A DNA stretch of 23,836 bases from a virus (lineage: Duplodnaviria > Heunggongvirae > Uroviricota > Caudoviricetes): the IMG/VR virus record IMGVR_UViG_2648501149_000019. One strand, given 5' to 3'. The position numbers and the translations under genes are program-made. The notes beneath the pieces are model-generated. The model was not told the origin of the DNA. It saw only the letters and a list, made by a program, of their open reading frames with translations, and searched no databases. Shown here one piece after another: positions 15,567 through 15,848 of the stretch. Each line of letters opens with the position of its first letter. Position 1 is the first letter of the stretch.

Positions 15567-15642
15567 GGCCCTTTAGCTCAGTGGTGAGAGCGAGCGACTC
15601 ATAATCGCCAGGTCGCTGGTTCGAATCCAGCAAGGGCCACCA
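15567..15642 (+). tRNA. ileZ: tRNA-Ile2 (anticodon CAU, ileX/ileZ-like)
   Basis: 76 nt with encoded CCA. Acceptor GGCCCTT/AAGGGCC, D-stem GCTC/GAGC, anticodon loop CTCATAA, T-arm GCTGG-TTCGAAT-CCAGC. Closely resembles E. coli ileX rather than the Met tRNAs. Confidence 0.85.
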
Positions 15643-15643
15643 A

Positions 15644-15720
15644 CCGCCACTAGCTCATCGGGATAGAACGCCAGCCTTCGAAGCTGGTTTCGCGGGGTTC
15701 GAGTCCCCGATGGCGGTCCA
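15644..15720 (+). tRNA. argN: tRNA-Arg (anticodon UCG), divergent
   Basis: 77 nt with CCA. Anticodon stem CCAGC/GCTGG, loop CTTCGAA, T-arm CGGGG-TTCGAGT-CCCCG. One mismatch at the acceptor base (C7/A66) and one in the D-stem. Starts 1 nt after the previous tRNA. Confidence 0.7.
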
Positions 15721-15733
15721 TTACCGGTATTCT

Positions 15734-15810
15734 GCGTTGTTAGCTCAGCCGGACAGAGCAATTGCCTTCTAAGCAATCGGTCACTGGTTCGAATCCAGTA
15801 CAACGCACCA
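15734..15810 (+). tRNA. argO: tRNA-Arg (anticodon UCU, argU-like)
   Basis: 77 nt with CCA. Acceptor GCGTTGT/ACAACGC, D-arm GCTC-AGCCGGACA-GAGC, anticodon stem ATTGC/GCAAT, loop CTTCTAA, T-arm ACTGG-TTCGAAT-CCAGT. Confidence 0.85.
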
Positions 15811-15825
15811 CACTTATTTTCCCTC

Positions 15826-15848
15826 GCTCGCTTTTGCGGGCCTTTTTT
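15826..15848 (+). terminator. Intrinsic terminator-like hairpin after the tRNA cluster
   Basis: GCTCGC-TTTT-GCGGGC (one G-U pair) followed by CTTTTTTG. Confidence 0.5.

Follow-up and report, generated by a model that had tools for sequence, protein, structure and literature searches.

Well-known counterparts of the locus analyzed here are found in Shiga toxin (Stx) phages. In the Stx2a phage F765 (AP012534) three tRNA genes, ileZ, argN and argO, are annotated between the gene of the antiterminator Q and stx2A. The cassette is thus already known: its annotation in Stx phages goes back decades, and labels assigned by the Prokaryotic Genome Annotation Pipeline (PGAP) mark it in thousands of E. 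coli genomes. The gene names used here rest on the GenBank annotation of AP012534, because searches on ileZ, argN and argO yielded no relevant paper in the literature collection used; these tRNAs are not discussed in PMC6266700 and PMC10462455. We analyzed a stretch of 23,836 nucleotides from a virus of the Caudoviricetes (IMG/VR record IMGVR_UViG_2648501149_000019; hereafter the window), which matches the end of contig JHSC01000013.1 (NCBI assembly GCA_001265795.1) at 100% identity and contains three adjacent tRNA genes. With a probability of roughly 80%, we regard this trio as the ileZ-argN-argO cassette of lambdoid Escherichia prophages, carried here by a toxin-free prophage. Beyond the existing annotation, the comparison adds incrementally that a sigma-70-like promoter is conserved, that the three genes are constrained to very different degrees and that argN is frequently lost. 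The genes and their flanking signals are:

15529..15557, plus strand: sigma-70-like promoter, read from the sequence, with -35 TTGCAG (15529-15534), a 17-nt spacer and -10 TATTAT (15552-15557)
15567..15642, plus strand: ileZ-type tRNA-Ile2 gene, anticodon CAU (ARAGORN; Rfam 72.6 bits; CCA encoded)
15644..15720, plus strand: argN-type tRNA-Arg gene, anticodon UCG (ARAGORN; Rfam 40.1 bits; CCA encoded; U73, C1-G72)
15734..15810, plus strand: argO-type tRNA-Arg gene, anticodon UCU (ARAGORN; Rfam 71.4 bits; CCA encoded; A73)
15826..15847, plus strand: intrinsic-terminator-like hairpin, GCTCGC-TTTT-GCGGGC followed by CTTTTTT (terminator scan)

These are exactly the three tRNA genes, all on the plus strand, that ARAGORN finds in the whole 23.8-kb window. 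All of them pass the gathering score of the Rfam tRNA model RF00005 (29 bits), with E-values of 2e-14 for the CAU gene, 2e-5 for the UCG gene and 5e-14 for the UCU gene, which rules out chance matches. The spacer between ileZ and argN consists of a single nucleotide (A at 15643), that between argN and argO of 13 nt (15721-15733). An earlier reading made from the sequence only (the sequence-only reading) had described three adjacent tRNA genes with the anticodons CAU, UCG and UCU, encoded CCA ends, spacers of 1 and 13 nt, a terminator-like hairpin behind the trio, and a divergent middle tRNA with the loop CTTCGAA, a C7/A66 mismatch and a mismatch in the D-stem. ARAGORN (cat, tcg, tct) and Rfam agree on the genes, the CCA ends and spacers are read directly in the sequence, the fold and a terminator scan agree on the hairpin, and explicit counting of base pairs reproduces the divergence of the middle tRNA. 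The three anticodons follow each other on the strand of the late genes in the order CAU, UCG, UCU, as in the annotated trio of the Stx2a phage F765, and the trio belongs to the known family on every tested point, i.e. anticodons, order, homology, position and mobility.

The comparison with Stx2a phage F765 extends well beyond the tRNA genes. ARAGORN returns cat, tcg and tct for the F765 trio as well, which settles the earlier doubt whether the anticodon UCG is also that of argN in Stx phages, and the annotation of AP012534 bears out the position between Q and the toxin genes that had been stated for these phages. Four collinear blocks are shared between the window and F765: Q, a stretch following Q, a block comprising the 3' remnant of a methylase gene, the trio and its terminator, and the STnc100 RNA element. 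The third block, including 150 nt upstream of the trio, aligns with 88.5% identity over 452 nt, which supplies the alignment to the Stx-phage genes proposed earlier. In both phages the trio has the same anticodons, order and strand and lies downstream of a homologous Q and ahead of cargo, STnc100 and lysis genes; in Stx phages, however, stxAB follows the trio, whereas the window contains a TerB-like/DUF3927 gene pair instead. The notion of the same architecture without the toxin thus holds, with homologous Q, trio and STnc100 and no stx homologue in the window; a hidden stx remnant was also considered and ruled out, as tblastn searches of the window for stx gave no match below E = 0.7. Further differences are the ileZ-argN spacer (7-9 nt in Stx phages, 1 nt in the window), the state of argN (no C·A mismatch and 54.8 bits in the Stx2a copy, two mismatches and 40.1 bits in the window) and three extra genes, namely a reversed DUF4236 gene, orf65 and the methylase remnant, which in the window separate Q from the trio.

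The trio block of the window is closer to those of prophages without stx. Trio blocks of E. coli prophages are 93-97% identical to that of the window, compared with 88.5-88.9% for Stx2 phages. In the prophages of EC12, 90-3040 and O103:H2 12009, which lie within this range, PGAP annotates tRNA-Ile, tRNA-Arg and tRNA-Arg, and the order of methylase, trio, TerB, DUF3927 and then holin is common to them and the window. The EC12 prophage also has a 1-nt ileZ-argN spacer and the C11·A24 mismatch in argN; compared with these prophages, the window allele additionally has C7·A66 in argN and G57 in ileZ. The latter replaces an A at position 57 of the T-loop and sets the window apart from every other prophage lineage sampled; since both bases are purines, it is probably harmless. 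More generally, the order Q, pR'-like region, methylase, trio, cargo, STnc100 and holin is common to Stx2a F765, EC12 and 90-3040. The trio of the window is surrounded by a lambdoid gene set (a CI-like repressor, replication genes, Q, holin, lysozyme, Rz and terminase), and these standard surroundings together with the homology indicate that it is prophage cargo in the position known from Stx phages, without the toxin. Many toxin-free prophages carry the trio, which therefore characterizes the late region of lambdoid phages and is not tied to the presence of the toxin.

A segment of 401 bases around the trio has matches of 88-92% identity in 289 phage records, most of them from Stx2-converting phages. 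Of 5426 complete E. coli genomes, 3060 contain trio-like DNA, each at 1-13 places, and 2366 lack it. With its location inside a prophage and a copy number of 0 to 13 per genome, the trio is phage cargo and not part of the core tRNA set of the host, which answers a question posed at the outset on the basis of prophage location and patchy presence. The exact trio allele of the window is absent from the 5426 complete genomes and occurs unchanged in at least five draft assemblies; because it is base-for-base identical in five independent NCBI assemblies, the mismatches in its argN are real and not sequencing errors. A scan of genome contigs gave five species-level matches, three to named Escherichia and two to metagenome-assembled or uncultured genomes, showing a narrow host range.

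The trio appears to have a promoter of its own. The methylase stop codon lies 40 nt ahead of ileZ, and within this gap the -10 hexamer TATTAT ends 9 nt before the tRNA gene. For comparison we collected about 130 trios with a pattern requiring an exact ileZ 3' end and an exact argO 5' start; many of these loci come from related strains, and all counts refer to sequences, not to independent events. TATTAT is found at the same distance from ileZ in 118 of 129 related loci, and for TTGNNN, at a spacing of 17 nt, the count is 117 of 129. Ahead of these hexamers the loci differ, with 19 distinct upstream contexts (the 3' end of a methylase gene, a terminator, the end of a Q gene and others), and the retention of the hexamers across these contexts is as predicted for a dedicated promoter. 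A scan for consensus promoters directly upstream of the trio found nothing, because the -35 hexamer matches the consensus at only three of six positions; the promoter emerged from the comparison of loci. A primary transcription start driving the tRNAs has been reported for the Stx2a phage Sp5 (Sy et al. 2020; PMC7547250). At the other end, the terminator hairpin has 6 bp (five of them G-C) and a 4-nt loop, with a folding energy of -10.4 kcal/mol (z = -3.1). It is kept in all five sequences of alignment A1, which includes the Stx2a phage, and a strict pattern matches it in 76 of 118 related loci.

The trio thus looks like a self-contained promoter-to-terminator unit, or 'moron', embedded in the late operon. 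Such an autonomous unit would allow the tRNAs to be of use both in the lysogen and in the induced phage: they could be expressed in the lysogen from their own promoter, and more strongly after induction by read-through from pR'. The three tRNAs would be made as one precursor, from which host tRNA-processing enzymes would cut them out. Expression, charging and a benefit for translation are what we infer for the trio from these features.

The identity of the tRNAs was compared with the aminoacylation identity elements compiled for bacteria by Giege and Eriani (2023; PMC9976931). The CAU gene of the window is much less similar to metT than to ileX of E. coli K-12, with which it is identical at 67 of 76 positions and shares the anticodon arm and the acceptor determinants, and PGAP calls its homologues tRNA-Ile. 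It has the determinants listed for isoleucyl-tRNA synthetase (A73, C4-G69, U12-A23, C29-G41, A37 and A38) and is free of the U4-A69/A5-U68 pairs listed for methionyl-tRNA synthetase. To judge from these positions it is of the Ile2 type, and its product would be read as Ile after modification of C34 to lysidine by TilS. Both argN and argO have A20, C35 and G36 or U36, the main determinants for arginyl-tRNA synthetase (ArgRS) in the same compilation; A20 lies in the D-loop AUCGGGAUA of argN and in the D-loop AGCCGGACA of argO. With its anticodon UCU, A73 and an Rfam alignment free of non-canonical pairs, argO forms a clean cloverleaf. For bacterial ArgRS the list further gives A73 or G73, with U73 in some bacteria, and the acceptor pairs G2-C71 and C3-G70 (PMC9976931); argN, as a candidate ArgRS substrate, has U73, C2-G71 and G3-C70, a combination common to the whole argN family including the Stx copy. 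The anticodon loop, D-arm and T-loop features of argO are also those of K-12 argU, whereas its stems differ throughout. In K-12, ileX and argU are chromosomal single-copy host genes and not phage cargo, and to our knowledge the K-12 tRNA set has no UCG tRNA-Arg that would be the counterpart of argN. In our reading, both ileZ and argO look fully intact and are probably functional in the window.

The codons that these tRNAs would read are frequent in the prophage. In a comparison of 32 genes of the window with 36 genes of E. coli K-12 (a 45-kb sample), the codons per 1000 were 9.3 vs 2.8 for ATA, 7.1 vs 0.7 for AGA, 5.7 vs 0.5 for AGG, 7.7 vs 2.7 for CGA and 9.0 vs 5.5 for CGG, the last reaching 14.8 in the late genes of the window. 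All five codons decodable by the trio, for which the sequence-only reading had suggested a codon-usage analysis, are thus enriched relative to the K-12 sample (1.6- to 12.6-fold; Fisher p 1e-14 to 7e-3), and the large terminase gene alone contains 14 CGG and 9 CGA codons. AUA would be read by the CAU tRNA after lysidine modification, AGA and AGG by the UCU tRNA, and CGA and CGG by the UCG tRNA, so that the trio would add decoding capacity for codons which are poorly read by E. coli and frequent in the prophage. The enrichment fits the usual codon-supply explanation of phage tRNAs. In the codon-usage compensation model of Bailly-Bechet et al. (2007), as cited in PMC7946995, phage tRNAs correspond to codons that the phage uses more often than its host, as is the case in the window. 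That model rests mainly on virulent phages with many tRNAs, whereas the window represents a temperate phage with a three-gene unit that has its own promoter and terminator.

The three genes differ strongly in constraint among the related loci. Scoring was confined to positions outside the anchors of the search pattern, i.e. to the remaining 60 nt of ileZ and 62 nt of argO. In 127 loci there are only 6 distinct sequences of ileZ (122 copies being identical), compared with 29 of argO and 52 of argN, and nucleotide diversity rises from 0.002 in ileZ to 0.038 in argO and 0.083 in argN; the adjacent 13-nt spacer reaches 0.19. Constraint is thus strongest on ileZ, which hardly varies, and intermediate on argO, whereas argN is often broken: of 128 middle genes, 53 form perfect cloverleaves, 38 have one to six mismatches and 37 (about 29%) are altered in length, and ARAGORN finds no tRNA at the middle slot in about 36 of 127 loci. 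Neither annotation pipelines nor codon-supply arguments should therefore assume that all three genes are active in any given prophage. Among the 41 distinct full-length argN alleles, A20, U34 and C35 are invariant and G36 is retained in 40, and this retention of the anticodon indicates selection on the argN family. Covariation values in these alleles equal those of shuffled alignments, which neither proves nor disproves the structure, because the alleles are only about 6% divergent. The family is under selection in many phages and has been lost in others.

Of the 21 stem pairs of the window argN, 19 are standard, and the anticodon loop CUUCGAA, A20 and the T-arm are retained. Members of the argN family score low even at best (54.8 bits in Stx2a), because the body of this tRNA is unusual (C1-G72, U73, U15). 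The nearest allele in a complete genome, that of EC12, is 97.1% identical, has only the C11·A24 mismatch and is annotated by PGAP as tRNA-Arg and not as a pseudogene. The 1-nt ileZ-argN spacer defines a group of 8 of 131 loci that includes the window, EC12 and PPompW. Folding of single sequences by minimum free energy was tried as a test of function and discarded, since it did not reproduce the cloverleaf even for canonical tRNAs.

Several points weigh against the trio as a working codon-supply cassette. The host baseline of the codon comparison comprises 36 K-12 genes only, and enrichment of rare codons is typical of horizontally acquired DNA, with or without tRNAs; because such DNA is rich in these codons anyway, the enrichment is correlative. 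The window argN has two C·A mismatches, one at the base of the acceptor stem (7:66) and one in the D-stem (11:24), and its Rfam score is the lowest of all passing copies. In a model of the argN cloverleaf, these mismatches cost about 8 kcal/mol (-23.4 kcal/mol for the window copy, -31.3 kcal/mol with both repaired, and -28.3 kcal/mol for the Stx2a copy). Neither U73 nor C1-G72 is typical of E. coli tRNA-Arg, and the 1-nt spacer between ileZ and argN may hamper processing. None of the 41 full-length alleles shows a compensated stem change, the changes instead producing wobbles or breaking pairs, and the 1-nt-spacer group contains no perfect cloverleaf (0/8) and six length-altered copies (6/8). 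The evidence suggests that the window argN is at best a weakened tRNA, in a sub-lineage in which the gene appears to decay, and we consider the chances that it contributes to decoding to be roughly even.

The middle slot of related loci holds several other forms. In 31 loci, about a quarter of the sample (e.g. L012 2726-2783; also L007, L017, L019, L025 and others), a tRNA-like form of 80/81 nt stands at the argN position. It keeps the acceptor stem, D-arm and T-stem; in place of the anticodon arm there is a 6-bp stem closed by an 11-nt loop, the T-loop is replaced and has no TTC, and neither ARAGORN nor Rfam calls it. This form is probably one lineage that has spread, because it is tightly linked to the spacer TCACAAA. 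Versions of 66 nt with a deleted anticodon arm occur within the 1-nt-spacer group (L013 2576-2630, L053 3684-3738, L061 8795-8849). In PPompW_132418 (LC567822; L002 4094-4169) a 76-nt argN homologue is annotated as tRNA-Lys(UUU); it has the loop CCUUUAA (C33), two D-stem pairs and an A·C mismatch in the T-stem, and differs from argN by compensated double changes at 7:66, 27:43 and 30:40. An ISEc20 element of the IS110 family directly follows the trio terminator there.

Truncation also affects argO. In five loci (L017 8255-8312, L060 4826-4883, L062 3846-3903, L080 5961-6018 and, in E. albertii, L126 5675-5732) the gene is cut right after the anticodon loop at the same junction, between CTTCTAAGCA and GCTGTGGTTGCACTCC, which looks like a single rearrangement or insertion. 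The break point lies where integrases typically act in tRNA genes.

The explanation that competes most directly with a three-tRNA cassette concerns only its middle gene: the window argN could be a dead pseudogene and the cassette a two-tRNA unit of ileZ and argO, the middle segment being a spacer that has not yet been deleted. We regard this as a real possibility, to which we give somewhat less than even odds. It would account for the middle slot being the least constrained (52 distinct sequences against 6 and 29, diversity 0.083), for the 37 of 128 copies altered in length and the roughly 36 of 127 left blank by ARAGORN, for stem changes that break pairs or turn them into wobbles and are never compensated, and for a 1-nt-spacer sub-lineage that includes no perfect copy and whose window allele has the lowest passing Rfam score. 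However, the anticodon loop, A20, the T-arm and 19 of 21 stem pairs of this copy are intact, it still scores 11 bits above the Rfam threshold, and C·A mismatches at helix ends are often tolerated. In addition, the diversity of argN remains below that of the adjacent 13-nt spacer (0.19), selection is indicated for the family as a whole, and the one-mismatch allele of EC12 is accepted as tRNA-Arg by PGAP.

Other explanations set the codon-supplying cassette aside altogether or give decoding a minor role. Phage tRNAs are known from other phages as nuclease-resistant substitutes, and the trio might accordingly replace host tRNAs cleaved by anticodon nucleases or tRNA-targeting toxins, such as those directed at tRNA-Arg, with the turnover of the middle gene reflecting an arms race; the body of the UCG tRNA, unlike host tRNA-Arg in its C1-G72, U73 and Y15, and the strong variation of the middle slot, which includes the variant annotated as Lys-UUU, would suit such a role. 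Yet this variation resembles decay (broken pairs, deletions, a replaced anticodon arm) and not adaptive change centred on the anticodon loop, that loop is the most conserved part of the gene, ileZ is almost invariant, no nuclease partner was identified, and the codon enrichment fits the simpler supply model, so that we hold counter-defence to be quite improbable. Similarly small is the chance we assign to the middle slot being a fast-turnover position whose variants are kept for a reason other than decoding, for example as nuclease decoys or substitutes or to assist the processing of the neighbouring tRNAs; the variants in question are the canonical Arg-UCG, the mismatched alleles, the 80-nt form with the replaced arm and the Lys-UUU-annotated form with compensated stems. 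That the trio and its terminator serve chiefly as an anchor for homologous recombination at the left edge of a cargo slot (STnc100 being the right one), with a secondary tRNA function, is unlikely too. It is suggested by the changing contents between trio and STnc100, namely stx2AB in F765, TerB/DUF3927 in the window, EC12 and 90-3040, and an IS110-family element in PPompW, but it leaves the near-invariant, intact ileZ and the conserved promoter and terminator unexplained, and it is compatible with the cassette explanation and no replacement for it. Finally, the three genes might not be phage tRNA cargo at all, but host core tRNAs, chance matches or part of a real gene on the minus strand, where an open reading frame (ORF) of 131 aa (15573-15968) overlaps all three; a 'hypothetical protein' is annotated over the homologous stretch of the GenBank phage record KF030445. 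Pfam gave no match for this ORF, which is almost certainly spurious. Together with the tRNA E-values, the position between Q and the lysis and terminase genes, and a block that is missing from 2366 of 5426 genomes and present in up to 13 copies elsewhere, this effectively refutes the idea.

The trio and STnc100 bracket a variable cargo slot, and the surrounding prophage genes and signals are:

12155..12520, plus strand: antiterminator Q gene, 121 aa (PF06530, E = 2.6e-51; 75% DNA identity to Q of F765)
12688-13875, minus strand: DUF4236 gene, 395 aa, inserted between Q and the pR'-like stretch
13998..14091, plus strand: pR'-like region (14003-14091 76% identical to the post-Q stretch of F765; promoter-like hexamers at 13972-14036)
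14588..15526 (start also given as 14585), plus strand: DNA methyltransferase remnant with deleted 5' end (PF01555), directly upstream of the trio
16103..16563, plus strand: cargo slot, occupied by stxAB in Stx phages, here with a TerB-like ORF of 98 aa and a DUF3927 ORF of 55 aa (Pfam)
16571..16751, plus strand: STnc100 RNA element (RF02076, 117.1 bits), closing the cargo slot
16779-16805: strong terminator after STnc100 (fold)

The pR'-like stretch ends in a hairpin followed by T6 (14070-14091; -15.7 kcal/mol), which the terminator scan did not list, and its pR'-like function is putative. Compared with the sister prophages L130, L131 and L135, the methylase gene has suffered a 95-bp deletion that removed the start codon and the DPPY catalytic motif, and the remaining 312-aa ORF, starting from an internal GTG, is probably inactive. 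The TerB-like ORF (16103-16399) has a weak Pfam match only; it is probably truncated, because its homologue in EC12 and L134 comprises 142 aa. STnc100 directly follows stx2B in Stx2a F765 and lies beside the anti-small RNAs AsxR or AgvB in other loci; no match to AsxR or AgvB reaches the threshold in the window. In the early region, an isrK Hfq-binding RNA (57.6 bits) and a C4 antisense RNA (85 bits) adjoin each other (7771-7959); they lie immediately ahead of a Phage_ASH/Rha-type gene and overlap its start. The same pair is present in the EC12 prophage, and by analogy the region resembles an antisense-controlled antirepressor module of the P1 type.

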